Source: a phage. From it: a stretch of DNA of 48,431 bases. The notes under the pieces are model-generated. The model saw nothing but the letters and a program-made list of their open reading frames with translations. It was not told the DNA's origin and searched no databases. Positions 12,542 through 29,751 of the stretch are shown here, in pieces. The DNA lies in the NCBI GenBank assembly GCA_012646845.1, contig GCA_012646845.1_4707.1; one strand, 5' to 3'. Made by a program: the position numbers and the translations under genes. Numbering within the stretch: position 1 is the stretch's first letter; the number at the start of each line of letters is the position of its first letter.

Positions 12542-15154
12542 TTATACGTCCGGCGTAAAATCAAAAGGAACGTCCGTACGAATGATATCATAACGTTTTC
12601 CTAAGAAATAGAACTCTTCGGGAACCAGACCGGGAACGATGCTATCGCCGATGAACTGTGGGTATGCCCAGATGTACTGAGTGAGTCCTTCGAACATATC
12701 CAGGTTATTTGCGTGGTTACCCATGATACGTTTCCAGAGTTCGCGTTTATACGGTGTTTTAACATCGAACCCATAAAGCGGTGCGAGGTCTTCACCAGGA
12801 ACAAATCCCAGGTAATAGTGGATCTGACTAACCGGGAAACCAAGCGTATCTCGCGGAATGGTGATCGCTTGCTCAGCCTTGGTGACATGCGTCTCAATAA
12901 TCCAGTCGTAGCACTCCGAATAGAACCGATCGAATTTCTCTGGATTATACCACGCTTTGGGAAGATTCAGTTTCTCCGTGAACGCGTTCGACATGATCGT
13001 CGGCAAGAACGGAAGAACGCCGGTTTTGATCTGTGTGTATTTCGATTTTACCCGATTGACTAGATTCCAGCAACTGTATCCTAATTGATCGTTGCAGAAC
13101 TCAACGTAGAGATCGTAATCCCCACCCGATAATGGATTATTAATATCGCCGATGTCTGCCGCATATTTGTTGGGGTATCGGTTATTGAAAGCCAGTTTGG
13201 TTTGGTAATCGTAAATGCACGGTTTATTGTTCTTCGTGTTAATCCACCACCAGGGTTCACCCACCTGCACACAAATGTCTTGGACATGCGGGTAGATGAT
13301 ATCAGCAAACGCGGTTAACACATCCCCTAACCACGCCATCGCGTGTTGGTTGCATGGCGACAACAACCAAGACGGCGGCGTATATCCGGTTGCTGCTATG
13401 TTTCCTTCCCAATCCTGCTGCGCCCACTCGAACGGGCATGCCGTACTCATCAATTCGTAACTTAAACTGATTGTAACAGAGAAATGGTGTTTTGCAGCGT
13501 ATGCGGCGAAAGCTTCATGCCATGCGATACAGGGTGGGTTGAGTACATCTGTGGTGTTCACCAGTAACTTACTCGCACTTGGTGTCCAGACAGTATCGTA
13601 GAAATGCGACATTCCAACATAGTGCACTAATTCATCTTGATATCCCGCATAAACCAGGTTCTCAAATACGCGTTCCGGCGTGATATTGTAATGGTCGTCA
13701 TAAGCGGTTATCGCACGAAGCTCGTGTGGTGTACATTGGTGACGATTAACCGTCATTTCCTGATACACCCCATCAATAGGAAGAATCTCGAGGGTTAAAC
13801 AGAGGTCGATCGGTGTTTCCAGGTAGGTCGTTTCTGTAGCACCTTCCTTATAATGTCGAGAACTCATGCTGAACATCAACGACGTGACCGATTCGAGTTC
13901 GATAGGTTCGTCAGCATAGAACCCCGCCATTGCGTCGTTGAAATCGATCGTTACGATTGCGCTTGTACCGTCTTCAGAGACGTCGGTGGCGTATCGGGTT
14001 AATGAGATATACTGACGGCTATCGTCTTTGTGTACGACGGTTAAAACCGGCGGGTTTTCGGTATCTGCAAAGTTCCGCTGGTCACCAGTAAACGTGATCT
14101 TGGCTTTAAAGATCAAACCGAGCAACGACGTCATGGGATCATACGCAACACAACCATGATCTAGCGTATCCGTTGTCCGCCATTCTATCCCTACCAACCC
14201 GTTAGCGGTATGGCATCGCATATACGCATTAAGTGTCATGTCTTCACTGACAACCGCGAAGTTCTCTGTAGATTGACCATTGATAATCCAATACATCGGT
14301 TGCCAGAGGTTACGCGTGCCTTTTGCGTAGCGGTAGGTTGGTGCACCTTTAGGGTTGCCGTTATTGAGATGGAATACAGCCGTACCTTGGTAATGATCGT
14401 TCGTGTTAATCGGAACACTGTACGCGTCGCCGAGGTCCGTACGTTCGACCTTCGTGACAGTTGCGTTTTCAAACAGCCCACGTAGTGTAGGAAGACCAAT
14501 GTCATCAGGCGCGTTTTCTCGGCGAATCGCGTCCGCGATGCGGTGGGCTAGGGCGGGGTAAATGGTCTCACCCTGCTGTAGGTTTGCAAGACCTACAAAG
14601 CGATCGGGGTTGATACCAGCAATCAATAACTCGACATCGCCCTTCGTTCTATCGTCATGGAGGTATTTCAGTCCAGTAAGATCAAGATGTTGAATTAACG
14701 ACAACAGATTGTACTTACGGTTTTCAACAGTCAGTGCAAGATCACCCGCCCAAACCAAACTTCCCTCATCCGCCGTTACTCTAACGGATTGGCGGCCTGT
14801 GGTGGACGTTGTTGTCGTTTTATTTAATTGTCCTTGTAGGAAGTCGGTTGCGAGGTCAAAGGCAACGCCGTAACGGTCAGCGACCGCCTGCATGATTTCA
14901 CGTAACTGGGTATCTTCTTCAATGATGATCTTGACGGGTATTCCCAAGAACGCCTTGGCGAGGTCTCGCTTAACCATCGAGACGAATACGGATTTGTAAT
15001 ATCGGCCTCCATCTTTCCCTTTAAAAAGAATGGAGGTTGTTTCGGGTGACGATAGAACACGTGCAAATACAACATCGTCGAAAGTAAGAGAAAGTCCGTT
15101 TTTCTCGTTGGTTAATCTTAGTATTTCATTTTGCGCGGTTTCATGTAACTTCAT
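12542..15154 (-). CDS. tail fibre/tailspike-like protein with shared N-terminal anchor module
   Basis: 870 aa; N-terminal ~170 aa homologous to 21881..23635, 21196..21723 and 27286..28116 (RDLAKAFLGIP; NKTTTTSTTGRQSV...LTGLKYLHDDRTKG). Confidence 0.7.
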   Translation of the reverse strand: MKLHETAQNEILRLTNEKNGLSLTFDDVVFARVLSSPETTSILFKGKDGGRYYKSVFVSMVKRDLAKAFLGIPVKIIIEEDTQLREIMQAVADRYGVAFDLATDFLQGQLNKTTTTSTTGRQSVRVTADEGSLVWAGDLALTVENRKYNLLSLIQHLDLTGLKYLHDDRTKGDVELLIAGINPDRFVGLANLQQGETIYPALAHRIADAIRRENAPDDIGLPTLRGLFENATVTKVERTDLGDAYSVPINTNDHYQGTAVFHLNNGNPKGAPTYRYAKGTRNLWQPMYWIINGQSTENFAVVSEDMTLNAYMRCHTANGLVGIEWRTTDTLDHGCVAYDPMTSLLGLIFKAKITFTGDQRNFADTENPPVLTVVHKDDSRQYISLTRYATDVSEDGTSAIVTIDFNDAMAGFYADEPIELESVTSLMFSMSSRHYKEGATETTYLETPIDLCLTLEILPIDGVYQEMTVNRHQCTPHELRAITAYDDHYNITPERVFENLVYAGYQDELVHYVGMSHFYDTVWTPSASKLLVNTTDVLNPPCIAWHEAFAAYAAKHHFSVTISLSYELMSTACPFEWAQQDWEGNIAATGYTPPSWLLSPCNQHAMAWLGDVLTAFADIIYPHVQDICVQVGEPWWWINTKNNKPCIYDYQTKLAFNNRYPNKYAADIGDINNPLSGGDYDLYVEFCNDQLGYSCWNLVNRVKSKYTQIKTGVLPFLPTIMSNAFTEKLNLPKAWYNPEKFDRFYSECYDWIIETHVTKAEQAITIPRDTLGFPVSQIHYYLGFVPGEDLAPLYGFDVKTPYKRELWKRIMGNHANNLDMFEGLTQYIWAYPQFIGDSIVPGLVPEEFYFLGKRYDIIRTDVPFDFTPDV

Positions 15155-15176: not shown

Positions 15177-15818
15177 TTAGATGTACTGCTTACCGCCCAC
15201 GAAGGAAGTTAGCCAGTTCCCACTGACAAGCTGTGATACCCAGCCAGGCACTGCCCTGCCATTCTGGCTCATGACATTACCACACCAGCCAGGGAATCCG
15301 GGACGGATATAATAGAAAGTTAAATTGTAGAGATGGCAATTCCATACCGCAACGTTATGTTTACCAGAAACCGCTTTAAAGACAAACGCAACGGGTAAAG
15401 GCGACGATAACAATTCGGTCACAGGGACGGCCGACCAGTTCGCATTCGCATTCCATGGTTGCCAGGTATGGCTACGCGAGTCGCAAAATACGTTACCGTT
15501 GTTACCGCGCCCACCCGCATGCCACCACAGCGACGGACTCATGTTCTTAAGTGAGGTAAATTGCTGTGGTGGAATATTAGGAATAATAACAGGGTTGGTA
15601 CCTTGCCCATGTTTCTTTTCTTTTGCGTTTACATACCCACTTATCGATTCGAGGTATTTGACACCAGGATAATTGTTCTGGACTTGTGTCGCAATATCAC
15701 GGACATCAAACGTCCAGCAGATCATGGTGTTGTAGTAAGCATCGGTGTTGTCGTACCAAGCGTTACCATCTTGTAAACGTGCGCCACTATTCGGTGTTTT
15801 ATCTGTGCTTATAGCCAT
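15177..15818 (-). CDS. hypothetical protein, paralogue sharing C-terminal module with 15925..16590
   Basis: C-terminus GFPGWCGNVMSQNGRAVPGWVSQLVSGNWLTSFVGGKQY nearly identical to neighbour; ~100-bp near-identical DNA. Confidence 0.65.
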   Translation of the reverse strand: MAISTDKTPNSGARLQDGNAWYDNTDAYYNTMICWTFDVRDIATQVQNNYPGVKYLESISGYVNAKEKKHGQGTNPVIIPNIPPQQFTSLKNMSPSLWWHAGGRGNNGNVFCDSRSHTWQPWNANANWSAVPVTELLSSPLPVAFVFKAVSGKHNVAVWNCHLYNLTFYYIRPGFPGWCGNVMSQNGRAVPGWVSQLVSGNWLTSFVGGKQYI

Positions 15819-15924
15819 GTTATTGTCCTATACTACGATGATTGAGATATCGAATGTCGGACGCTTGGTGCCGTCTGGTAGTACATACAGAAACACCCAC
15901 AGATAAAACAATAACTCCCATCAA

Positions 15925-16590
15925 TTAAATTGATGTTAGATACTGCTTACCTCCGACAAACGATGTCAACCAGTTCCCACTGACAAGCTGTGATACCCAG
16001 CCAGGCACTGCCCTGCCATTCTGGCTCATCACGTTACCGGCCCATCCCGGAAAACCAGGTCGGAAAATATATACTTGAATATGTGTTAAAGCGTTATCAT
16101 TACCTCCACCAACAGCAACATTACGACGTCCGGATGATGGGAAATATTCTTTTAAGAACAGGGGATCGTTTGCCAATAAAGAAGCAGGCCAAGGATTAGC
16201 GGATGCGTCAACATCGAATTCGGTCCATCGCCATTTGCGCCCAGTATCGAACCAGGTTGACGTACCACCGCCACGCACCGCAAGATTGCGTGCGTCACGG
16301 GCACTGTATATTGATTCGATGTTGCGCCACCCACCTTTTGCGACGTTTGCCGCATAGCAAATCGCATTACCACCATTCTTCTTTTCGTAAACGGTTCGTT
16401 TGATATGAACACGGTCGATAAACGCTTCACCGTATTTGTTGACGAGTGTTTGCGCGATATCACGAAGATCGTGCATATGAAAGGCGATGTCTTCGTTGTG
16501 GAACCACGTTGTCGGGTTCCAAACGGTGCCGTTTGGTTCGGCACACATCGATCTGATGTTGTTGCGTTGATTAATCGCGATAAAGCCCAT
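15925..16590 (-). CDS. hypothetical protein, paralogue of 15177..15818
   Basis: start set to ATG 16590 (GAGGTGGACC SD), aligns with N-terminus of paralogue. Confidence 0.6.
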   Translation of the reverse strand: MGFIAINQRNNIRSMCAEPNGTVWNPTTWFHNEDIAFHMHDLRDIAQTLVNKYGEAFIDRVHIKRTVYEKKNGGNAICYAANVAKGGWRNIESIYSARDARNLAVRGGGTSTWFDTGRKWRWTEFDVDASANPWPASLLANDPLFLKEYFPSSGRRNVAVGGGNDNALTHIQVYIFRPGFPGWAGNVMSQNGRAVPGWVSQLVSGNWLTSFVGGKQYLTSI

Positions 16591-16653
16591 GGTCCACCTC
16601 GTTCCTGTTCTCGAAGGAAATTTCATACGATGACGCCATAACAGCTCCCCCAT

Positions 16654-16695
16654 CCTCCCTTCCCTTACGGGTTGGGAGGATGTAAGGGAAGGAGG
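16654..16695 (-). terminator. long hairpin CCTCCCTTCCCTTAC...GTAAGGGAAGGAGG downstream of lipoprotein gene
   Basis: ~14-bp inverted repeat read directly. Confidence 0.5.
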
Positions 16696-17253: not shown

Positions 17254-17670
17254 TTACACAGTTTTAGGAAATTCCGGCCAATCGATATTTGGCGCGGCGT
17301 CGGTATCGATAGCCGTCACCTCGTCAATGTAATCCAAAACAGCATTAAGTTGGGCTGTTTCTTCCGGAGTCAGTTTTCGCCCGGCCCGTAATTTTAACTG
17401 AATAAGATCAATGGAAGCCAGCGCAGAGTCAATCAGAGATTTTTTCATCTGTTCTGCCTCGGCGACGAGATCTTCGTGTTGCCGCTCGGGTTCCGGAGGT
17501 GCGGTAAACTCACCATTTGAGTATAACCAACCTATTCCGGGCGACACAGCTCCCGTATCGCTAATGCCGACCAACTGTTGATTGTCAGATACATTGAGTT
17601 CTGCTTCGCCATCGTAAACGATCGTGTTTACTACCACCCCATTTTCAATAACAGCGTATGATGTACTCAT
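17254..17670 (-). CDS. tfa: tail fibre assembly chaperone (lambda Tfa-like)
   Basis: C-terminus AEAEQMKKSL...LDYIDEVTAIDTDAAPNIDWPEFP matches lambda Tfa C-terminal domain; ATG overlaps fibre stop (TAATG). Confidence 0.8.
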   Translation of the reverse strand: MSTSYAVIENGVVVNTIVYDGEAELNVSDNQQLVGISDTGAVSPGIGWLYSNGEFTAPPEPERQHEDLVAEAEQMKKSLIDSALASIDLIQLKLRAGRKLTPEETAQLNAVLDYIDEVTAIDTDAAPNIDWPEFPKTV

Positions 17671-20600
17671 TACATAAACTCCTCGATGATGCAAATCCCG
17701 TCAGCGCCACGCCCACCACGCATAACGGTTCCAGTGTAACCGTTATCGTAAGCGCCGCCACCGCCCGAACCTCGTGCGAGGCCGTTTGACCCGCCACCAA
17801 CAGCTGCGCGACCACCGCCACCCCAATATGACGCACCCCCACCACCACATACAGGAAATGCGCCAGCTTGACCGTCATCACCATCACCACCTGAAATGCG
17901 TATATCCCCGGTACTAGGTGTACCACCACCCCCACCACCAGTGTTTGTGACGGTTGTTTTTCCTGCGCCTTGCCCACCGGGAGCAGTTAGTAGGGATGCA
18001 AATTTACTATCCCCGCCCCTGTTTCCAATTGTTGCCCCGGAACCACCAGTGCCACCAGAACCAATTACGACAGAATAACTAGTAGCTGTTACCGCTATAA
18101 CCGAAATTACTGTTCCACCGGCCCCACCGCCAGCACCAAAAAACGTTTCGCTGTTGGAAAAAGCCTGGCAACCACCGCCGCCGCCTCCACCACCGGTTAA
18201 TATTACTCTAATCCGTTTTGTTCCTTGTGTTGGGGTGTACGTCCCTGACGATGTGAAAACACGCGTATTCAGTAAACGTCCGACATATCCGCTAGAATCG
18301 GCTAAACCAAGATCTTTAGCTGCTAACGTTATATTAGCTGTACCGTCAAACGGTTTACCGTTAATCGTGCGCGCGGTCTGCAACTTCGTGGCCGTTGCTG
18401 CGTTTCCTGACGTATTCTGGTTTCCCGCGGCGTTAACACCTGGTAGATTGATGTTCGCACTACCGTCGAAAGATACCCCACCAATGGTGCGGGCTGTTTT
18501 CAGTTTTGTCGCCGTGGCAGCATTACCGGTTGTGTCTTGGTTACCGGTGGTGTTTACCCCAGGCAGGTTGATATTGGCTGTTCCGTTAAATGAAACACCG
18601 CCAATCGTCCTTGCTGTTTGCAGCCTCGTTGCGGTTGCTGCGTTCCCCGTGGTGTTTTGGTTACCCGTTGCATTCACGCCCGGGATACTATCCTTAGATG
18701 TGTAGATCTGTGCCCATTCCGACCAGTTAGAATCGGCTGCATCACGACGTGAACGTAAATAAGCCGGAGCGTGTGTGCCCGAGGTACCTGACCAACCAAT
18801 GAGGATTTCACCTTCACCGGCCGATGAAGCACCTTTGAGGTGAATAACGTTACCATAGGCGGTTGGGTAGCCGTTACTGTACGCTTCATACATCTGGATA
18901 CCGGTATTACTACCTTGGGTCGCATTAGCTAACGCGGTAACACGACCTTTGGAGGCGAGAGCGGTAATACTGAAGCTAATGTCCTTAGTACCGTCAAAGG
19001 CGACCCCATTAATCTTCCGTGCTGTTTGGAGTTTCGTGGCAGTAGCCGCGTTACCAGAGGTACTCTGATTACCTGCTTTGTTCACGCCAGGCAAATCAAT
19101 GTTGGCTGTTCCATCAAAGGACACACCCCCTATGGTTCTCGCTGTCTGGAGTTTTGTTGCTGAGCCAGCGTTTCCGGAAGTACTTTGATTACCTGCCGCG
19201 TTGACGCCCGGTAGGTTAATGCTAGCAGAACCATCAAAAGAAACTCCACCTATCGTGATCGGTGTTTTCAATTTCGTGGCTGTCGCAGCGTTACCGGTTG
19301 TATTTTGATTGCCTGTCGCATTAACGCCCGGTAATGCAATATCCGCTGTTCCGTCAAAGGCAACGCCGCCGATTTTACGGGCGGTTTGTAGCTTGGTTGC
19401 ACTAGCAGCGTTACCACTGGTATTCTGGGTGCCAGCTTTGTTAACACCCGGGAGATCGATGTTAGCAGAACCATCGAAGCTGACGCCACCTATCGTTCTT
19501 GCAGTAGCGAGTTTAGCTGCTGTGGCTGCATTGTTACCCACTTTCAGCCAATCATCCCATGGACCATCCTGGCCGTTCCACGATGCCGTTAAACTACGTA
19601 CGTAAATATTGCCAGTACGTACAGTGTAACGTTGCGTTCCACCGAATTGTCCAGCAGGGAGCACTTCAAGGTAACCTGCGGCATTTGCTTCAGGGAAATT
19701 GTGGGCGACGTCCGCATTCGTCGTTATTGGTTTAGACCAAATACCCACAGACGCTTCAACCGGACCGTAAGTATTCAGATTTGCGTCGGTGGGGAGCTGT
19801 CCTCGAAAACGTTGGAATTGTGTCGCCGATAACCCCAACGTTGTTTGCATGCTTTCAATGCTGGATTGCTGAAGTAACGTCCGTGCTGTCGACGTAATCA
19901 CGGTAAGCGCAACTTTATTAACACCGGTGAAATACGGGAGTTTGTCTGCTGATGTCGCTAAACCTGAAAAGGCGGTCAGTAATGCGTTAAGGGGCTGCTT
20001 CCCAGCTAACGCATTTGTTACCGTCGTTGCGAAATTAGGATCGCTTCCTATAGCTCGAGCCAGCTTATTAAGCGTATTTAGCGTCGCTGGTGACGAGTCG
20101 ATCAGCGCCGTGATCGCACGCATCACAAATTCCGTGTTGGCTATCTGTCGACTGCTATTGTTAACTGCTGCGGTGGGCGCTGCTGGCGTACCAGTGAATA
20201 CAGGGCTATTAAGATCCGCCTTGAGGGCGATGAGACGTTTAAGCGCTTCAACATCAACTTTCAGGTTTTCCCATCCGATGAGAGAACCACCACTGCTGGC
20301 ATGGTAACGGTTGTACCAGAAGTCACCGTTAACGCCTAAAAAGAATATTCCCTTCTCTTCGTTTTGTGGACCGGAACTATTTCGTGACGAGCTGATGTAA
20401 TTGATTTCAATAAGACCAGTAAACGTCACTCCTGGGATTATTTTGTTGTCTCCAGCTGACTGTGATACTTGGTAAATCCCCGGGGTTGCGGCTTTAACCC
20501 ATGTTAAGAATTCTGTTACTCCAGCGGTACCGCTAAAATTCTTAACGTCGGTAAGTATCGCCCCATAACCGAACATACCGGGTAGAGCCACTCGTCCGCT

Positions 20601-21188
20601 GGTACGGTCACGAATATCTGTCGCAACAACAGGCAATTGTTTACGAACGGCATTAACCGCTTTAGGCGTGGCCGATTTTGTCTCGTCATCGCTATCGGTT
20701 TCATTACTTAGAATAGTTAAACCGCGTGTAGCAGTAGTTGCATCAGGAAGAAATGCGTTATCCAACACCTTAAGCTGTATTGCACTCGTATTACTAACAA
20801 CGACATGCACCTGACAGTTAAGAACGCTGGTTGCGCCTTCGGCAGGCGTAGGCTTATATCTTTCTGGTGCACTGCAGACGGCAATCAGAACACCTTTATC
20901 GTCGTACAGACCGATCTCACGTACCCAGAACCCACCTTGACCAGCAGGAATAATACCCTCAACGACAATCCTGGTTGTACTATCGCCATCCGCATGGATA
21001 TTAGAAACTTCCCCACGATAAACTTCGTGAACAAGTGCTGTTTGGCTGGCGGTCGGGGTTGGTGTCGAGCCGTTACCATCACCAACGGCAAAGTGTGTGA
21101 TTTTTAGTTTCTCACCGTCGGGAAGTAACGCAGCGGTGATACGTTCTGCTCCTTTATCGGTAACTACCGTTTTATATGCTGTACTCAT
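17670..21188 (-). CDS. long tail fibre protein: P2 gpH-like N-terminus, two blocks of ~38-aa fibre repeats, Gly-rich C-terminal tip
   Basis: N-term MSTAYKTVVTDKGAERITAA...HFAVGDGNG; repeats GNAATATKLxTARTIGGVSFDGxANIxLPGVN; C-terminal poly-Gly motifs; start set to ATG 21188. Confidence 0.85.
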   Translation of the reverse strand: MSTAYKTVVTDKGAERITAALLPDGEKLKITHFAVGDGNGSTPTPTASQTALVHEVYRGEVSNIHADGDSTTRIVVEGIIPAGQGGFWVREIGLYDDKGVLIAVCSAPERYKPTPAEGATSVLNCQVHVVVSNTSAIQLKVLDNAFLPDATTATRGLTILSNETDSDDETKSATPKAVNAVRKQLPVVATDIRDRTSGRVALPGMFGYGAILTDVKNFSGTAGVTEFLTWVKAATPGIYQVSQSAGDNKIIPGVTFTGLIEINYISSSRNSSGPQNEEKGIFFLGVNGDFWYNRYHASSGGSLIGWENLKVDVEALKRLIALKADLNSPVFTGTPAAPTAAVNNSSRQIANTEFVMRAITALIDSSPATLNTLNKLARAIGSDPNFATTVTNALAGKQPLNALLTAFSGLATSADKLPYFTGVNKVALTVITSTARTLLQQSSIESMQTTLGLSATQFQRFRGQLPTDANLNTYGPVEASVGIWSKPITTNADVAHNFPEANAAGYLEVLPAGQFGGTQRYTVRTGNIYVRSLTASWNGQDGPWDDWLKVGNNAATAAKLATARTIGGVSFDGSANIDLPGVNKAGTQNTSGNAASATKLQTARKIGGVAFDGTADIALPGVNATGNQNTTGNAATATKLKTPITIGGVSFDGSASINLPGVNAAGNQSTSGNAGSATKLQTARTIGGVSFDGTANIDLPGVNKAGNQSTSGNAATATKLQTARKINGVAFDGTKDISFSITALASKGRVTALANATQGSNTGIQMYEAYSNGYPTAYGNVIHLKGASSAGEGEILIGWSGTSGTHAPAYLRSRRDAADSNWSEWAQIYTSKDSIPGVNATGNQNTTGNAATATRLQTARTIGGVSFNGTANINLPGVNTTGNQDTTGNAATATKLKTARTIGGVSFDGSANINLPGVNAAGNQNTSGNAATATKLQTARTINGKPFDGTANITLAAKDLGLADSSGYVGRLLNTRVFTSSGTYTPTQGTKRIRVILTGGGGGGGGCQAFSNSETFFGAGGGAGGTVISVIAVTATSYSVVIGSGGTGGSGATIGNRGGDSKFASLLTAPGGQGAGKTTVTNTGGGGGGTPSTGDIRISGGDGDDGQAGAFPVCGGGGASYWGGGGRAAVGGGSNGLARGSGGGGAYDNGYTGTVMRGGRGADGICIIEEFM
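18290..18700 (-). repeat. coding tandem repeats (~114 bp) within tail fibre gene, block 2
   Basis: imperfect direct repeats visible in DNA and protein. Confidence 0.6.
18950..19520 (-). repeat. coding tandem repeats (~114 bp) within tail fibre gene, block 1
   Basis: imperfect direct repeats visible in DNA and protein. Confidence 0.6.
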
Positions 21189-21195
21189 GGTGTTT

Positions 21196-21723
21196 TTATC
21201 CTGGATAAATAGTGATGATATCACCAATGACCGTTGTGGCACCGGCGTAAAGATGAGCCGGAGATACATCGTGTTGGTTTGTCACGGTAAGATCTAATCG
21301 ACCACGCCAAACCATGGAGGTATTCGCGATGGGGATAGAAATCTTTTTGGATATATCGTCACGAAAATCAATAACAGTGGCAAGGGTAACTGCATCAAAG
21401 TCAACGTCGGGATCAAAGACGAACCCGTATTGATCTGAAATCGCCCGAATAATCGCGTGTATAGTTGTTGTCTTAACAGACTCTAAAACGATTTTTATTG
21501 GTATTCCTAGAAATGCCTTCGCAATATCGCGTCGAGCGTAAACGATAAAACTTTCACCGTTCCACCTTGTTCCTTCATTTGCTGTGACGATCACTTTTGC
21601 CCTGTTAGCACCAGAACTTCCATCCAAGACTAATGTAAGATCGGAGCTGTTGAATACGCTACTGTTACGTCTGTTTATCAACGACGTCAGTTCGTCTTTC
21701 CATGGCGGGTAAAGTGAACACAT
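21196..21723 (-). CDS. short protein consisting of the shared fibre N-terminal module
   Basis: YARRDIAKAFLGIPIKIV; start set to ATG 21723 (GGAGGAGGG SD). Confidence 0.65.
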   Translation of the reverse strand: MCSLYPPWKDELTSLINRRNSSVFNSSDLTLVLDGSSGANRAKVIVTANEGTRWNGESFIVYARRDIAKAFLGIPIKIVLESVKTTTIHAIIRAISDQYGFVFDPDVDFDAVTLATVIDFRDDISKKISIPIANTSMVWRGRLDLTVTNQHDVSPAHLYAGATTVIGDIITIYPG

Positions 21724-21836: not shown

Positions 21837-21868
21837 CCCCTCTATCCCGACAAAGCGAGATAGAGGGG
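21837..21868 (-). terminator. hairpin CCCCTCTATC...GATAGAGGGG downstream of 21881..23635
   Basis: perfect 10-bp inverted repeat. Confidence 0.5.
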
Positions 21869-21880
21869 AGGATAATACGA

Positions 21881-23635
21881 TTATGCTGCTACATATCCAG
21901 GCCAACGTTCTCTTGGCCAGTTTGTTGCGCCCTGTCCAACGTTGTCCTTACCAGAAGTTACGTTACTCACATCCCATCCACTCAGATCCTGATTGAACGC
22001 GGTGTTTTCGCGCATCATGAGATCGATCTTACGTAGCGAACGGGTATTCCAGCCGGAAATGTCTTGGTTGAATGCCGTATTGTAGGCAAACATGTTAGAC
22101 ACGCTTTGTAATTTTGAGGTGTTCCAACCACTGATGTCGCTATTGAACGACATACTTGAGAACATGCTGCTCGCATCAACAAGACTGTCAGTTTTCCAAT
22201 TAACCAGTTTATCACCATCAAGTGCATCGCTGCTGCTGAACATAAAACTCATGTCGTTAACTTTGGACACATCCCATTTATCCAACCCGTTACCCACGAA
22301 CGCAGGACAGGACGAGAACATATAACTCATATTAGTAACCCGACTCACATTCCATTTACTGAAGTCGAGGTTAAGTTTCTGACACCCTAAGAAGGTTTTA
22401 CACATGTTGGTGATACGACTAACATCCCACTCTTGGATGTTGGGGTCGTTAAGCGTCGTTAAATAGTTGAACAATGTCGCTAACGACGTCCATTTCTCTG
22501 GAATCCGGTTTGGTACCGTACGAAGCGATGCGAGGTTGTTGGTTGACGGAGAGCAGAACATACCGTTATCCCAATTTACGATCTCCGTAATTTTGGACCC
22601 TTTGATCGTCTGAGTGACGTTACCATCTTTCACCATACCTGTAGCGACGATGGTATATTCACCAGTGTCCGCATAATCGTGGGTGTAGGAGTTGTTGCTT
22701 GAGGTCTCCGTTACTTTATTCCCATCACCCCAATCGATATTGACCTTATCCCATCCACCTAGGTAGAACTGTACTTTGCCTCCGGTGGCTTTTAGGATAT
22801 ATTTACCCCCATTGTCGGTATAATAACAGACAACCATTGAACCGTACAGATTACCTATCTGCCAATCATCCTTTTGCGATATTGCGATTTGCGCCGCACC
22901 ACGCTGTACGAAGAGTACCGTACGATTCTCGGCAGTCTGTAATGTGGTTATTGCCTGAGCTTTATCGTCCTCGCTAATTTCACCAGATCCCACCAAAGCG
23001 CTTAACATCCTTTCGAAGTATTCGATCGGTAACTCAGCTCCAACAGACTTATCAACAGACTGTACAGCAAGATCGCCCAATGCTGCAGTGGTAGCCAACG
23101 CCAATGAACCCTTGGTCATATCTGTTTCTTGGATGTAATGCAGTCCCGTAAGCTGGTACGCTTGAATAATAGTAATCAGGTTCAGCGTATCGTTAACGAC
23201 CTGTACCTGTAAATGCCCGGACCATACATAGCTGCTTTCAGCAATCGGTAGCTCGACCGATTGAATACCTGATGTTTCAAAGGTGATCTTCTTATTAAGA
23301 TCGGTTTCCAGGAAATCAACCGCGAGGTCGAAATTCATGCCGTACTTTTCAGCGATGGAATCTACGATATTCTTGAAAGCAACATCTGTGCTTACGATAA
23401 AACGTAACGGAATTCCCGTAAACGCTTTAGCGATGTCTCGACGAACATACGTAAGCGATTGTTCGAAGAAATAGGGACTGTTATCTCCAGGCTTGATGGT
23501 TACCTGACACGCTTCAGGATATTCAGCTGGGATGAACGATTCGAATTTAACGTCGGATTCCTTCAACGAAAGCTTGTTATTCCGGTTCACTAACGCCAGA
23601 AGATCGGCTTTCCATCCGGGGTAAACTGTAGACAT
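21881..23635 (-). CDS. tailspike/fibre-like protein: shared N-terminal module plus C-terminal DUF285-type repeats
   Basis: N-term YVRRDIAKAFTGIP; C-terminal repeats WDVSRITNMCKTF / WNVSRVTNMSYMFSSC / WDVSKVNDMSFMFSSS / WNTSKLQSVSNMFAYNTAFNQDISGWNT. Confidence 0.7.
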   Translation of the reverse strand: MSTVYPGWKADLLALVNRNNKLSLKESDVKFESFIPAEYPEACQVTIKPGDNSPYFFEQSLTYVRRDIAKAFTGIPLRFIVSTDVAFKNIVDSIAEKYGMNFDLAVDFLETDLNKKITFETSGIQSVELPIAESSYVWSGHLQVQVVNDTLNLITIIQAYQLTGLHYIQETDMTKGSLALATTAALGDLAVQSVDKSVGAELPIEYFERMLSALVGSGEISEDDKAQAITTLQTAENRTVLFVQRGAAQIAISQKDDWQIGNLYGSMVVCYYTDNGGKYILKATGGKVQFYLGGWDKVNIDWGDGNKVTETSSNNSYTHDYADTGEYTIVATGMVKDGNVTQTIKGSKITEIVNWDNGMFCSPSTNNLASLRTVPNRIPEKWTSLATLFNYLTTLNDPNIQEWDVSRITNMCKTFLGCQKLNLDFSKWNVSRVTNMSYMFSSCPAFVGNGLDKWDVSKVNDMSFMFSSSDALDGDKLVNWKTDSLVDASSMFSSMSFNSDISGWNTSKLQSVSNMFAYNTAFNQDISGWNTRSLRKIDLMMRENTAFNQDLSGWDVSNVTSGKDNVGQGATNWPRERWPGYVAA

Positions 23636-23652
23636 AAGCACTCCAAAGTTCA

Positions 23653-23669
23653 TGGGGCGGTAACCGCCC
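23653..23669 (-). other. short perfect hairpin GGGGCGG-TAA-CCGCCCC between large structural gene and downstream fibre gene
   Basis: read directly; lies just upstream of the start region of gene 21881..23635. Confidence 0.4.
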
Positions 23670-23675
23670 CGTTGG

Positions 23676-26600
23676 TTAAATTGTTGGTTTAATATCGCGT
23701 AATAGGGCGATATAATAGCCTAATCCTCGGAGGATCTCCCCGCTCCAGAAACCAAAATACATTCCGTCTCTGCCGAGATTAGCACTATCTGGTGCAGGAC
23801 TCCACCCACCATTCATTGCGTCATCAACGGTGTAACGGTTTATGTAGTTCTCAACGATCTCGTTATAAACATTAACAGCAACAGAATAGCCTTTATCGTT
23901 GGGATGTTCGTACAACATCGCTAACGACGCTCCGGCTAACCATAATCCCGCCATGTGACCAGTAAAGTCGTTCGGGATAAAAGCAGGGGGTTTATCCATC
24001 GGAAAATCCGTAGGAGACCGATAGGTGTTTTCCTGTTGATACGTAAACAAGAAATCGATCCAATGACTGATGTAAGTGGATAGCTTCTCAGGGATAGCTA
24101 AACCGCGATCATGCAGTCCTGCATAAAGCCTCACCGCTGAAAAGAAAGCCCTCGGCTGATAACCAGACCATGCTGTCTGATCGCCGAAGTGGTACATCGT
24201 AAAATCATTAACTTTCGATCCGCTTGGCGCATCCCAACGATCCCACACGTACGCACTCGCACCCGGCCCTAAAACCCCGAATTTCTGATAATACCACTGC
24301 TGTGAGTCATACCAGAAATTCACAACATTCCGAATCATGAGGTCACGCCGTTCAGTCGGTACGTCCATATCCAGGAAGACCCATGGATGTTGGTAGCCGG
24401 GATAAGGCTGACCACGCCAACTGTCGAACGTCGGTGCGTTAGGGATATAGTTGTTCGAGAACGGAATAATACCCGGAGTATAAGGTAACGGATCGAGGCG
24501 TTGGTTGACAATCGTGCAATCACCAACCCGTAATGTTCCCTCCGCCTCAAAGGCTGCTTTTAACGTAAACAGCATGGTATATCCGTCATCCGTGGTGTAA
24601 GTTGATGGTGGATTGTTGATGGCGTAAAGCTTAAATACCCCTTCAGCGATATCGCTGTCATCAGGCAAGAACAGAATTTCAGTTGAGCCATCACCCCACA
24701 CAGGTGCAGAAGGTTTAGGGTCAGTATCGGTGTGGTTCGGTTGATACCCTGAGAGCGTCCATCCGGTAGCCGAAAGCGTCAACGTATTTCTTGATGTGGT
24801 GGTCGGTAGCATCTGCCACCATCGCCAACCATTCGCATCTTCGACACGAACGTTGTAGTCAATCGACGCGAAATAACTGACCTGTCTTACGATCTGTTTT
24901 GCTGTTGGATTGAATTCAAATTGTCCGCCTGCCGCAGTAAGCTGCGCTTTTAAGAACAACCCATCCCAGGAATCTTCCGCTGCTTCGCTGAATTCTGTTG
25001 TGATTGCGACATCGTCTTTCCAGCCGACTTTATCAGCCGATATCAACACAGAACCCGTAACAGCATCACCGGTTGGTGTTGAAGCTTCATCGACCGCATC
25101 AGCAGGAATCAATGAGCCTATTTTGAAATCCCATCCTTTCGGTTCAACGCTGGAAGGTAATACCAGCTTATACGTTTTGGCTTTCGCTTCGGTTTTGTCC
25201 AAAGAAAGCGACAATGAGATCTCAACCGGAATTGCTACGCCTGTCGTATCTTTACCCCCGCAGGTTACCCGAAGAATTGAATCACGATTGACGCGGAACG
25301 GAATAGCCTGCTGTTCAAGGTAAATTTGTGCTGAAGATGCTTGAATCACGATCCAGCCATCGGTATCACGTGTGATTGTAAATGGTGCTTTCGATGGGTA
25401 TGTATACGTGTAAGCGATACCGTCGGTGTCGTAACGATCGGTTCCTTTTACCTGACGGAAGAACTTATCGTTGGCGTCGATACGGGTATATTCTTCAATC
25501 GTAAACAAAGATGCCTTGTACGCTTTCTGATAACGCTCCTGCTGCGTTAAACGGTATAAGGTGTAGGCTGATTCACAAAACCACTGTTCAGCGTCTGACG
25601 CGTTTCCCATGTAGTCTCTGGTGACCGGCACCTGGATCGGTCGGTTATGCTGACACTCGTTCGTTTTGATAAGGTATCCGCCATATTCAACAGGAACACG
25701 CGGTGCCCATGCAACCAAGTAAGAACCGTTGACGGATTTATCTTTGAGTACGATGGTACCTACCTCATCGTCAGTACACGCTTCAAGATCGTCCCCGTCA
25801 GCACTTACGTAACGTTTTGTGCGTAACGCAACTTTCTCGATAGGGAACACCGTACCCTTTGTATCCCAGTCAATCGTCCCATCATCATTGGTTTTGAACA
25901 CATCGGCGTTCAAATTCTGCCAGCCGAGTTTACCCTCATAGACCTGAACAACAAGATCCATGTATTCCCCGAATGTTGGTGCCCCATGTGTTATTTTCCC
26001 GATACCGTTGGTGAATGTAACCGCTGTGTCATGGAAACCCCCGTGTGTTGGGTAATCGTCTTTTGCAAGAGGATAATGAGCCAACACCGGTTGCTTACCA
26101 TTAACGATCCAGTTAGCGATCCAGCGTGTCGGTGTATCCGGTGGTTCAAGGCCTGCGTAGAACGCTTTTATATACGCATCGAACGATGCCTCTGCTAATG
26201 TGAGATAATGCGCTTTAAGCTTGGGGTCATCCGTTGTATGACTGAATATACCCGCACCCAGAATTAACAACGACTGTCCTTCTGTTGTTGCGTCACCATC
26301 CGGTTGTGCTTCTTGTCGTGTTGCTGCAATGAAGTGGCGATTGTTTACCATTACCCCGCTTTCATTTAACACGTAATGATCGGTTTCTGGGTCGGTAAAC
26401 GTTCCTGTATTTCGGGTTAAGAAGCTTGCGTGGCCATAACCAACAAAATTAACCGACGACGCTGTAATCATCCATTTACCGATAAGTTGGGCGACATCGT
26501 TATATCGCTCCGATGCGGTGATTTGTTTCACGTACCAATCTTTACGGTTGAATGTCCAAAGCAGGAAGTAATACGTGGCATCGATTTCCATTACCGGAAA

Positions 26601-27272
26601 CGTCGGTGTTAACGGCTCCAGCGTTAAGTAGTTGCTCCAGTCAATCTGTCCACCAACAACCGACGGGGTAATCTCTAATAACTGACACCACTCATAACGG
26701 TCTGGCACACTACTGGACGTTGCTGGTAAAGGTAACTTGTATACGCCAGTACGATTCAGATTGAATGCTTTCCTAGCCGATCCTAAATCAACATAAATAC
26801 CGGATGATACGCTTGCACTAGATGTCTCCAAAGCACCTAGCGTTGACCGATACATTGAGATGAACAGCGTATCTTTCCAGTAAGGGTTGTCCTTGGTTGG
26901 TTCTAGTGCGATTTGTGCGAAGATGCTGTTCTGCGTCCCTAACTGGTATGTTGCATTTAAAGATTCTTCTATGAAATAACTTTCTGCAATCGCCAGATGG
27001 AACTGCTCGTTCAATAACGCGAGTGCCGCTCGACCAGAAACCGCTTCATTGCCGGTTTCTTTTTTCATGATCGCACCGAACGGAAACAGTGTCGCGAATG
27101 ACCGTTTTGGTTTATTAACCGTAACCGTCCCCGTGTAATTTCCAACGCCATCAAGTTTTTGATTATCGCCAACAGCGGTGACTGTGATACCATCAGCCGG
27201 GATATCTGTTTTGTTTAGTACATTGAGTTGGTCGACCAGATCCTGTTTATCGTCAGGTAAGAATGTCGTCAT
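23676..27272 (-). CDS. large structural protein (1198 aa), putative fibre/baseplate-associated
   Basis: ORF track; AAGGCGGAG SD; located inside fibre locus; no catalytic motif recognised. Confidence 0.6.
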   Translation of the reverse strand: MTTFLPDDKQDLVDQLNVLNKTDIPADGITVTAVGDNQKLDGVGNYTGTVTVNKPKRSFATLFPFGAIMKKETGNEAVSGRAALALLNEQFHLAIAESYFIEESLNATYQLGTQNSIFAQIALEPTKDNPYWKDTLFISMYRSTLGALETSSASVSSGIYVDLGSARKAFNLNRTGVYKLPLPATSSSVPDRYEWCQLLEITPSVVGGQIDWSNYLTLEPLTPTFPVMEIDATYYFLLWTFNRKDWYVKQITASERYNDVAQLIGKWMITASSVNFVGYGHASFLTRNTGTFTDPETDHYVLNESGVMVNNRHFIAATRQEAQPDGDATTEGQSLLILGAGIFSHTTDDPKLKAHYLTLAEASFDAYIKAFYAGLEPPDTPTRWIANWIVNGKQPVLAHYPLAKDDYPTHGGFHDTAVTFTNGIGKITHGAPTFGEYMDLVVQVYEGKLGWQNLNADVFKTNDDGTIDWDTKGTVFPIEKVALRTKRYVSADGDDLEACTDDEVGTIVLKDKSVNGSYLVAWAPRVPVEYGGYLIKTNECQHNRPIQVPVTRDYMGNASDAEQWFCESAYTLYRLTQQERYQKAYKASLFTIEEYTRIDANDKFFRQVKGTDRYDTDGIAYTYTYPSKAPFTITRDTDGWIVIQASSAQIYLEQQAIPFRVNRDSILRVTCGGKDTTGVAIPVEISLSLSLDKTEAKAKTYKLVLPSSVEPKGWDFKIGSLIPADAVDEASTPTGDAVTGSVLISADKVGWKDDVAITTEFSEAAEDSWDGLFLKAQLTAAGGQFEFNPTAKQIVRQVSYFASIDYNVRVEDANGWRWWQMLPTTTSRNTLTLSATGWTLSGYQPNHTDTDPKPSAPVWGDGSTEILFLPDDSDIAEGVFKLYAINNPPSTYTTDDGYTMLFTLKAAFEAEGTLRVGDCTIVNQRLDPLPYTPGIIPFSNNYIPNAPTFDSWRGQPYPGYQHPWVFLDMDVPTERRDLMIRNVVNFWYDSQQWYYQKFGVLGPGASAYVWDRWDAPSGSKVNDFTMYHFGDQTAWSGYQPRAFFSAVRLYAGLHDRGLAIPEKLSTYISHWIDFLFTYQQENTYRSPTDFPMDKPPAFIPNDFTGHMAGLWLAGASLAMLYEHPNDKGYSVAVNVYNEIVENYINRYTVDDAMNGGWSPAPDSANLGRDGMYFGFWSGEILRGLGYYIALLRDIKPTI

Positions 27273-27285
27273 TATTTACTCCGCC

Positions 27286-28116
27286 TTAATCGTAACTGAA
27301 ATAAAGTTTGCTGCTGACGCCGCTATCGGAATGAGGTTTTAATACCAGAACAGAGCTTCCGAACGACGGAAGTATCGGAACATTTAAATCGTTTGCGTCG
27401 GCAACTTTTCCATTATAAACGACACTGGCTGTTGTGATGAGTTCCCAAGCTAAGGCATAACTCATTGAAATCAGTGAAGAGGCTAAACGGAACGCACTGT
27501 ATCCTTCAGGAGAATCTCCAACCAACATCGAACGTATCGCATCTTGCGGCGGTAAATTTAGCTTGATGCCGTAGGTGCTGAATGTGTGGAAATCCCCTTG
27601 TTTACTATCTTCCGGATAATAAGAGGTTAGTGGTTCTCGTACCGTAATCAGCTCGCTAATATCAGTACTTACCGCTTTTCGTACGAGGAATTGAAACGTA
27701 CCGTACCACGATGCTGAGGCATCAGAACGAATAGGAACAGATACGGTTTTCTCGTCACTTTCAAATTTAATCTGTGATGCTAGCGCTGAAGAATCAAAGA
27801 TCGTTAAATCGATCTTCAACCCATACTTCTTAAACAGCTGCGTTAAGCAGTCTGCTATAGTCGTCATATCAGCAACGACAATAAAAGGTTGGTGTTTGAT
27901 AAAGAGCTTATTAATGTCTCGACGTTGAAGATAAACCTGCACGGGGTCTTCGATATAGTAAGTCGATTGTGATGTGGGGACTATAGAAAGGCGTAACCGA
28001 CCTGATGCACCATACCAGGCTGGCGTTAGCGTAATGTCTGACGGGGATAATGGATGCTGGAGATCGGTGTTTATTTTAGATAACACTTCCTCTTGCCATG
28101 ATGCTTCAGGATACAT
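27286..28116 (-). CDS. protein with diverged copy of the shared fibre N-terminal module
   Basis: YLQRRDINKLFIKHQPFIVV...KKYGLKIDL aligns with RRDIAKAF-GIP module of the other three. Confidence 0.6.
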   Translation of the reverse strand: MYPEASWQEEVLSKINTDLQHPLSPSDITLTPAWYGASGRLRLSIVPTSQSTYYIEDPVQVYLQRRDINKLFIKHQPFIVVADMTTIADCLTQLFKKYGLKIDLTIFDSSALASQIKFESDEKTVSVPIRSDASASWYGTFQFLVRKAVSTDISELITVREPLTSYYPEDSKQGDFHTFSTYGIKLNLPPQDAIRSMLVGDSPEGYSAFRLASSLISMSYALAWELITTASVVYNGKVADANDLNVPILPSFGSSVLVLKPHSDSGVSSKLYFSYD

Positions 28117-29575: not shown

Positions 29576-29751
29576 TTTCTATTCCTCAAACAAAAAGATT
29601 GTCTTTTACGCGACATGATTACAAGTACACAGGTTACTGAATTTCTGTAAAAGTTAATTTTCGTAAACTAAAAGAAAATGTATCCGTGTTTCCTGGTTCT
29701 TCCCCTCCACAGCCTCAGGAAGAGAAGAACCGTTTGCTAAGTTGTTATGTA

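Follow-up and report, generated by a model that had tools for sequence, protein, structure and literature searches.

The stretch of phage DNA analysed here (48,431 nt, called the window in what follows; NCBI GenBank assembly GCA_012646845.1, contig GCA_012646845.1_4707.1) carries, at 21881..23635 on the minus strand, a gene for a 584-aa protein that joins an N-terminal DUF7941 module, a PKD-like domain and a C-terminal array of DUF285/PARCEL leucine-rich repeats (LRRs), as read from its open reading frame (ORF), its domain matches, its 584-aa orthologs and its start context. The window is collinear with positions 81747-129898 of Escherichia phage vB_EcoM_Goslar (Goslarvirus goslar, hereafter Goslar), with an identity of mostly about 90-95% (~92% overall) that falls to 82-89% in a small number of segments, among them the tail-fibre region, and this collinearity identifies the encoding phage as a chimallivirus, that is, a nucleus-forming jumbo phage of E. 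coli. The gene lies in a tail-fibre cluster wholly on the minus strand, where gp094-like, gp093-like and gp092-like genes (named after Goslar) are followed by the 584-aa gene, a gp091-like gene, the tail fibre and its chaperone, and further downstream by a gp086-like gene. Its frame is open throughout 21881..23653 (minus strand), and the ATG at 23635 is the likely start, because a GGAG stands 5 nt upstream and because the resulting 584 aa is the length of most orthologs; a second in-frame ATG at 23653 would give an alternative product of 590 aa. This GGAG (23641..23644, minus strand), found by sequence reading and alignment, is the Shine-Dalgarno sequence of the gene. Directly past the stop codon lies a hairpin with a 13-bp stem (21837..21868, minus strand; RNA fold of -26.7 kcal/mol, z -4.8), and a short G+C hairpin (23654..23670, minus strand; -13.6 kcal/mol, z only -1.5) follows the upstream gp092-like gene, directly before the start region.

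The C-terminal part of the protein (aa 356-575; 21911..22570, minus strand) comprises an N-cap and eight DUF285/PARCEL repeats, the first and last of which serve as caps. The eight repeats fill the C-terminal ~200 aa, with anchor tryptophans at 379, 403, 428, 454, 480, 504, 529 and 554, so that the at least five repeats of about 26 aa announced in an earlier note on this DNA turned out to be eight, spaced by 24-26 aa. The motif given there, W-[DN]-[VT]-S-[RK]-[VI]-T-[ND]-M-x-x-M-F, fits closely at 403, 428 and 454 and more loosely in the other five, and the interval given there, 21881-22560, corresponds to aa 359-584 and takes in the whole LRR domain with its N-cap. The DUF285 identity that the note had proposed held in hidden Markov model searches, in which Pfam PF03382 matched with an E of 2.9e-46 and 156.6 bits (cut-off 25), a profile match that is far beyond chance, and NCBIfam TIGR02167, which now carries the name "PARCEL repeat-containing surface protein", matched with 73.8 bits (cut-off 30) in four stretches. 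Within the window, DUF285 was found just once. Across 26 orthologs, the domain behaves as a tandem array of ~25-residue amphipathic units with a fixed hydrophobic framework and variable hydrophilic positions. In an AlphaFold2 model built from a 65-sequence alignment (mean predicted local distance difference test score, pLDDT, of 80.9), the region from about aa 356 to 575 is predicted at a pLDDT of 90-98 as a repeat solenoid, as the note had expected, and one of LRR type: the curve is that of the BspA-type fold, with one short beta-strand per repeat and DSSP strand residues at aa 410, 435, 461, 487, 511, 536 and 561, hence one every 24-26 aa, which is the repeat period. At the level of sequence, the repeats are confirmed as genuine DUF285/PARCEL leucine-rich repeats. 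The domain is in itself an expected one, already annotated automatically, and the protein family was described in 2026.

The name PARCEL comes from the dyad symmetry of the coding DNA, a variable and possibly ancestral attribute of such repeats (Roske et al. 2010, PMC2996958). Within the repeat-coding DNA (21926-22501), reverse-complement k-mer pairs were not above codon-shuffled controls (k = 6-9, p 0.09-0.6) in a k-mer test that differs from the MEME method of the PARCEL paper, and direct k-mers were enriched against codon-shuffled controls (p about 0.01). An antisense ORF of 77 aa (22092..22325, plus strand) overlaps the PARCEL-coding DNA; nothing supports its status as a gene, and ORFs on the opposite strand are common in PARCEL regions (Roske et al. 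2010, PMC2996958). Against NF045896, the profile of the Mbov_0838 family of bacterial PARCEL surface lipoproteins, the protein scores 99.7 bits for a cut-off of 500, which is below equivalog level. A lipoprotein signal was also sought at its N-terminus (MSTVYPGWKADLL...), which consists of the DUF7941 module and has neither hydrophobic leader nor lipobox.

This DUF7941 module (23090..23602, minus strand; aa 12-182 by Pfam PF25613, E 2.6e-23, 83.3 bits for a cut-off of 27) forms in the model a folded N-domain of about aa 1-150, and is the conserved anchor that the earlier note had perceived, common to neighbouring genes. A Foldseek search with the model returned a sole confident match in the PDB, namely 9xqd_0 (probability 1.0), which aligns to the N-domain and is a chain of 150 residues from the phiKZ outer peripheral baseplate. 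After the DUF7941 module comes a linker (aa 150-190; 23066..23188, minus strand) predicted at a pLDDT below 50 and thus probably disordered, which gives the protein the layout of the chimallivirus DUF7941 filament proteins, i.e. a module above the Pfam cut-off and then a flexible linker. The secondary structure of the model next shows a helical hairpin (aa about 204-238) and a small beta domain (aa 239-290; together 22766..23038, minus strand), and no family match was obtained for aa 204-290. Between these and the LRRs, the model and a profile search delineate a PKD-like beta-sandwich (aa 291-355; 22571..22765, minus strand) with the motif DWGDG...H.Y...G.YT, which is nearly invariant, bacterial homologs included. 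Pfam sees this domain below threshold (PF00801 at aa 297-344, 17.4 bits for a cut-off of 23.5, E 0.0044; PF18911, 15.4 bits for a cut-off of 27), and a profile of 22 homologs matches the PKD domains of collagenase ColH (E 1.5e-4) as well as those of 1l0q and 1b4r. Searching the PDB by sequence with the full-length protein gave no match, fold and profile searches alone being informative in this respect.

The closest relative of the protein is gp161 of Goslar, with 47% identity over aa 8-446, a span that takes in the PKD-like domain as well as the initial LRR repeats; a second alignment places about four additional internal repeats in the 584-aa protein. Judged from these alignments, it is a paralog of gp161 and a further family member that the model phage Goslar lacks. 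The DUF7941 family of Goslar was defined in a 2026 preprint as gp22, 23, 31, 33, 34, 86, 91, 92, 93 and 161, and its members were described as head-to-tail filaments anchored at the peripheral baseplate: purified gp22 assembles into filaments, AlphaFold predicts that the linker docks head-to-tail on the next N-domain, with the same layout in gp22 and gp23, and phiKZ gp126/gp127 fit peripheral-baseplate density (bioRxiv 10.64898/2026.04.21.720040). The same work proposed a "DUF7941 fibre cloud" bearing carbohydrate-binding, hydrolase or LRR domains for host recognition, in which gp161 stands as DUF7941 plus LRR; its Table S4 credits gp161 with 27 peptides and a copy number of about 110 per virion (bioRxiv 10.64898/2026.04.21.720040). 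In this light, the word fibre used by the earlier note proves a loose one: Pfam searches for Phage_tail_fib and Phage_fiber_2 domains gave no match in the protein, which belongs with the DUF7941 filament family, the classical tail fibre being its neighbour at 17670..21188.

On this basis, we favour, at a probability of roughly 0.6, the view that the protein is a virion component, namely a DUF7941-anchored accessory adhesin whose outward PKD-like and LRR domains bind the host surface. Under this scenario, the DUF7941 module and disordered linker would let the protein join the head-to-tail DUF7941 filaments at the peripheral baseplate or cap them, so that the PKD-like domain and the eight-repeat solenoid could be displayed outward and bind a ligand on the host-cell surface. 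The protein, which would have arisen as a gp161 paralog with about four extra repeats, might thereby act as an accessory adhesin or host-range factor that helps the virion to find or hold cells. The domain architecture, the LRR fold prediction, the gp161 paralogy, the conserved position of the orthologs and the indel relative to Goslar were computed here, while DUF7941 filament formation, baseplate association and the presence of gp161 in the virion come from that preprint (bioRxiv 10.64898/2026.04.21.720040). Several points weigh against this view. For the 584-aa protein itself, we infer both incorporation into the virion and a binding activity with its ligand; of the receptor-binding or adhesin role suggested by the earlier note, what stands is that the same reading was given for gp161, its closest paralog (bioRxiv 10.64898/2026.04.21.720040). 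A literature search for BspA/LRR phage receptor-binding proteins found none. The fibre-cloud model is partly speculative, with no density for DUF7941 proteins in the Goslar baseplate maps, and since gp091 is barely detected in virions (about one copy; Table S4), a DUF7941 module is no guarantee of incorporation (bioRxiv 10.64898/2026.04.21.720040). Moreover, since Goslar has lost the gene and infects E. coli without it, the protein would be dispensable on laboratory E. coli and is not essential. It seems scarcely credible, for its part, that the protein would be an intracellular or injected LRR effector binding a host protein after the manner of IpaH, SlrP or YopM-type LRR effectors, as the similarities to these are generic to the LRR fold, the DUF7941 module is tied to external filaments and the baseplate, no enzymatic domain is present and the gene sits within a tail cluster.

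The way in which the protein varies bears on what it might bind. Computing column entropy over the 26 orthologs, we found the DUF7941 module to be the most conserved part (mean 0.27) and the PKD-like domain the most variable (mean 0.86), with a mosaic pattern in which its identity drops to 45-57% in orthologs that are otherwise 82-85% identical. In the LRRs, variation recurs at the same non-framework x positions of each repeat (1-2 bits), whereas framework positions stay near 0, the F-N-x-D-[IL]-S-x-W-[DN]-[VT]-S framework being almost invariant. Such a combination of a conserved anchor and variable distal domains is the pattern that would be expected for a protein facing a changing external ligand. 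This ligand need not be bacterial: the PKD/Ig-like and BspA-type LRR domains could also bind gut mucus glycoproteins or extracellular matrix and concentrate virions near their hosts. Bacterial BspA proteins bind host matrix proteins, Ig-like domains of phage capsids have been reported to bind mucin, Goslar was isolated from duck dung and the profile search supports the PKD-like domain, all of which would suit this adherence to an animal environment. Nonetheless, we regard it as very unlikely, since a placement on baseplate filaments beside glycan-degrading DUF7941 proteins suggests a target on the bacterial surface and our analysis yielded no evidence for an animal one.

With regard to its distribution, the gene is missing from Goslar as a segment corresponding to 21894..23638 of the window (no strand assigned), as delimited by blastn, the sequences themselves and their alignment, with flanks that abut at Goslar 103564/103565. 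The empty site reads ...hairpin-ATGAACTTTGGAGTG|TAGTAGCATAA-hairpin..., with the junction at a short GGA..TG similarity. Still present there are the ribosome-binding site, as an orphan copy of the Shine-Dalgarno GGAG, five codons from the start of the longer frame, the final 11 nt including the stop codon, and the 13-bp-stem hairpin. Because an orphan Shine-Dalgarno sequence, five codons, the last 11 nt and the gene's own hairpin all remain, the empty site indicates that the Goslar lineage lost the gene body by a clean deletion and not that the lineage of the window gained it, and the insertion of a cassette in the window lineage is, given these remnants, the less likely alternative. A second related locus, L007 (6790..7000), lacks the 584-aa gene as does Goslar (L006): the two share ...TTTGGAGT and then read CCACAGAGCACAAAGTG versus TAGTAGCATAATCGTA. 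Since these junction sequences differ, the gene may have been lost more than once, or a different C-terminal allele may have preceded the loss.

Elsewhere, orthologs of 583-590 aa (70-98% identity) form about 50 protein clusters, many of them on contigs of 235-248 kb, and in diverged Goslar-like genomes the ortholog sits at the same position in all three loci inspected. The neighbourhood appears combinatorial: the gene, gp092 and gp093 are all present in the window and in two further loci (L004 and L005), gp092 and gp093 are present and the gene absent in Goslar and L007, and a 241-kb relative (L003, 5288..8391) has the 584-aa gene directly after gp094, with the orthologs of gp093 and of the 1198-aa gp092 missing. 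Since this last locus lacks gp093 and gp092 yet has the 584-aa gene, the DUF7941 genes of the cluster, as far as these loci tell, vary independently of one another. This makes it unlikely that the protein is a structural adaptor, whose LRR and PKD-like domains would bind a phage protein (such as the P1 S-type fibre, gp092 or another DUF7941 filament) and organise the peripheral baseplate or fibre network: its partner should co-vary with it, yet the gene occurs without gp092 and gp093 in L003 and is absent beside both in Goslar and L007, and distal domains that vary periodically and in mosaic fashion are more easily reconciled with an external ligand that changes. As for a dispensable, decaying accessory gene without current function, its clean absence from Goslar and L007 would agree with it, but the many clusters of full-length orthologs, which show no truncation and keep the framework residues, leave this explanation next to no weight. 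Going further than the adhesin reading that we favour, one may tentatively envision the LRR-capped DUF7941 protein as a swappable host-range or niche determinant of Goslar-like phages, in which presence or absence of the gene, the mosaic PKD-like domain and the variable LRR face would decide to which surfaces (Enterobacteriaceae, or gut mucus and matrix) a micron-scale fibre cloud binds; we hold this to be possible, though rather doubtful.

The 584-aa protein or gp161-type paralogs are also found on Goslar-like contigs of up to about 235-248 kb deposited under the names of bacteria, namely E. coli, E. coli O157, Shigella flexneri, Salmonella enterica and Enterobacter hormaechei. Complete E. 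coli genomes, searched for the gene on a prophage or plasmid-like carrier, gave no match, and since the carriers occur in draft assemblies and none in the complete E. coli set, the bacterial labels suggest phages carried along in cultures that were sequenced as isolates. One more Goslar-like contig, IMGVR_UViG_3300045988_173921 (L008, 1..11416), shows gp092 reduced to its C-terminal 467 aa, then a 175-aa DUF7941 protein (61% identical to the N-terminus of the 584-aa protein and 68% to gp091) and, directly after it, a fibre-assembly chaperone with no tail-fibre gene; its fibre module may be rearranged or defective.

Among the neighbours in the window, the gene just downstream encodes a 175-aa protein made of DUF7941 only (21196..21723, minus strand), recognised as the ortholog of Goslar gp091 by Pfam, annotation and tblastn. 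Upstream lies the 1198-aa tail protein orthologous to gp092 (23676..27272, minus strand; phrog_2871, E 4e-296), in which Pfam found no DUF7941 match; gp092 has been classed as a DUF7941 protein with carbohydrate-binding or glycoside-hydrolase domains (bioRxiv 10.64898/2026.04.21.720040). Next to it, the 276-aa gp093 ortholog (27286..28116, minus strand) is assigned to the DUF7941 family by tblastn with the N-terminus of the 584-aa protein (28% identity, E 7e-10) and by Pfam matches on its orthologs in L004 and L005. The 870-aa gp086 ortholog (12542..15154, minus strand) has an N-terminus 41% identical to that of the 584-aa protein, and Pfam reads gp086 orthologs as DUF7941+NCTSP_N+TIM-barrel_NCTSP. 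The classical tail fibre, of P1 S/P2 type and orthologous to gp090 (17670..21188, minus strand; Pfam Phage_tail_fib, E 1.2e-41), is accompanied by its assembly chaperone Tfa (17254..17670). Some ten diverged repeats of 40 aa (120-nt period; consensus like GNQNTSGNAATATKLQTARTIGGVSFDGSANI.LPGVN) lie in this fibre, whose C-terminal domain is rich in glycine (Pfam Gly_rich_2); the fibre aligns with Goslar gp090 in parts only (83-92% identity), with a different number of repeats. The possibility that the fibre segment is invertible, as in P1 C or Mu G, was considered and rejected, the apparent antisense match to the Goslar tail-fibre-assembly gene being in fact gp161. Near the fibre cluster, another variable gene is a 242-aa ORF (15925..16653, minus strand) that has no Goslar counterpart (window 15832-16691 against Goslar 97759-97907). 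Its paralog is the 213-aa gp087-like gene next to it (15177..15818, minus strand), the two having in common the last ~45 aa and a direct repeat of 131 nt (84% identity), and extra genes of this sort occur in L005 as well. Conversely, megablast found nothing in the window that corresponds to Goslar gp096 (109585..110085, 166 aa), 30 nt at 29659..29689 standing in place of about 505 nt; a 166-aa gene is kept at the gp096 position in L003.

The earlier note had also proposed that the repeat domain was acquired horizontally, a proposal left unsupported here. The best bacterial DUF285 proteins are 29-42% identical to the 584-aa protein over its C-terminal part, as against 47% for gp161, and the G+C content of the gene equals that of its flanks. 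Together with the conserved locus, these features leave a recent horizontal acquisition without support. Since the nearest relative is gp161, the G+C content is that of the flanks and the locus is conserved in diverged genomes, a duplication within the phage lineage followed by repeat expansion appears the more parsimonious origin. If bacteria ever donated the PKD+DUF285 unit, they would have done so in the distant past; the patchy occurrence of DUF285 has been well documented (PMC2996958).

DUF285/PARCEL repeats occur widely among bacteria, jumbo phages and giant viruses, and the sources consulted name no ligand for a viral one. Here, the domain is joined to a defined anchor, the phage lends itself to genetic and structural work, and Goslar, the closest laboratory strain, is a naturally occurring deletion mutant for precisely this gene, so that experiments could address what a viral DUF285 domain does. 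A comparison of phages that have the gene with phages that lack it could reveal the ligand of the DUF285 domain and whether adsorption or host range is determined by DUF7941 filaments. If the gene were indeed a swappable determinant, Goslar would be its natural knockout, and adding the gene back would test the function of a viral DUF285 domain directly.

The protein can finally be set against the systems it resembles. With the BspA-like/PARCEL surface proteins (DUF285, TIGR02167) of bacteria such as Mollicutes, Listeria and Bacteroidota, it shares the 25-26-aa repeat; its predicted LRR fold resembles BACOVA_04585, and proteins of the type IX secretion system (T9SS) of Bacteroidota show the same pairing of PKD-like and DUF285 domains, with DWGDG...H.Y nearly invariant across the alignment. 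It differs from bacterial PARCEL surface proteins in having no signal peptide, lipobox or T9SS sorting domain, a phage module attaching it instead, and in that dyad symmetry is not detectable in its coding DNA. The same repeat domain occurs in DUF285/BspA proteins of other large viruses, i.e. Vibrio phage pir03 (PARCEL ORF200), Klebsiella phage N1M2, Aeromonas phages D3/D6, Synechococcus phage ACG-2014f and Aureococcus anophagefferens virus (AaV), the last of which packages two DUF285 proteins in its particles; unlike the present protein, these have no DUF7941 module, and the chimallivirus PCH45 matches only its N-terminal part. DUF285/BspA domains are annotated in Lak phages too. With the DUF7941 filament family (Goslar gp22/23/31/33/34/86/91/92/93; phiKZ gp126/127/143), it has in common an N-terminal module above the Pfam cut-off, a predicted disordered linker, a structural resemblance to the phiKZ peripheral-baseplate chain and a gene that clusters with other members. 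Oligomerisation has been shown or proposed for gp22, gp23 and phiKZ gp126/127, whereas the 584-aa protein is placed in the family by sequence and model; and most members have no distal domain, or glycan-binding or hydrolase domains, LRRs being found only in the 584-aa protein and gp161. The latter is its nearest counterpart, with the same order of DUF7941, linker, helical/beta region, PKD-like domain and DUF285 LRRs and the same phage lineage, at least one contig (235,874 bp) carrying both types. The two differ in that gp161 lies next to helicase genes and was found in virions, whereas the 584-aa protein, known from sequence and encoded by a gene absent from Goslar, lies inside the tail-fibre cluster and exceeds gp161 by 101 aa and about four PARCEL repeats.
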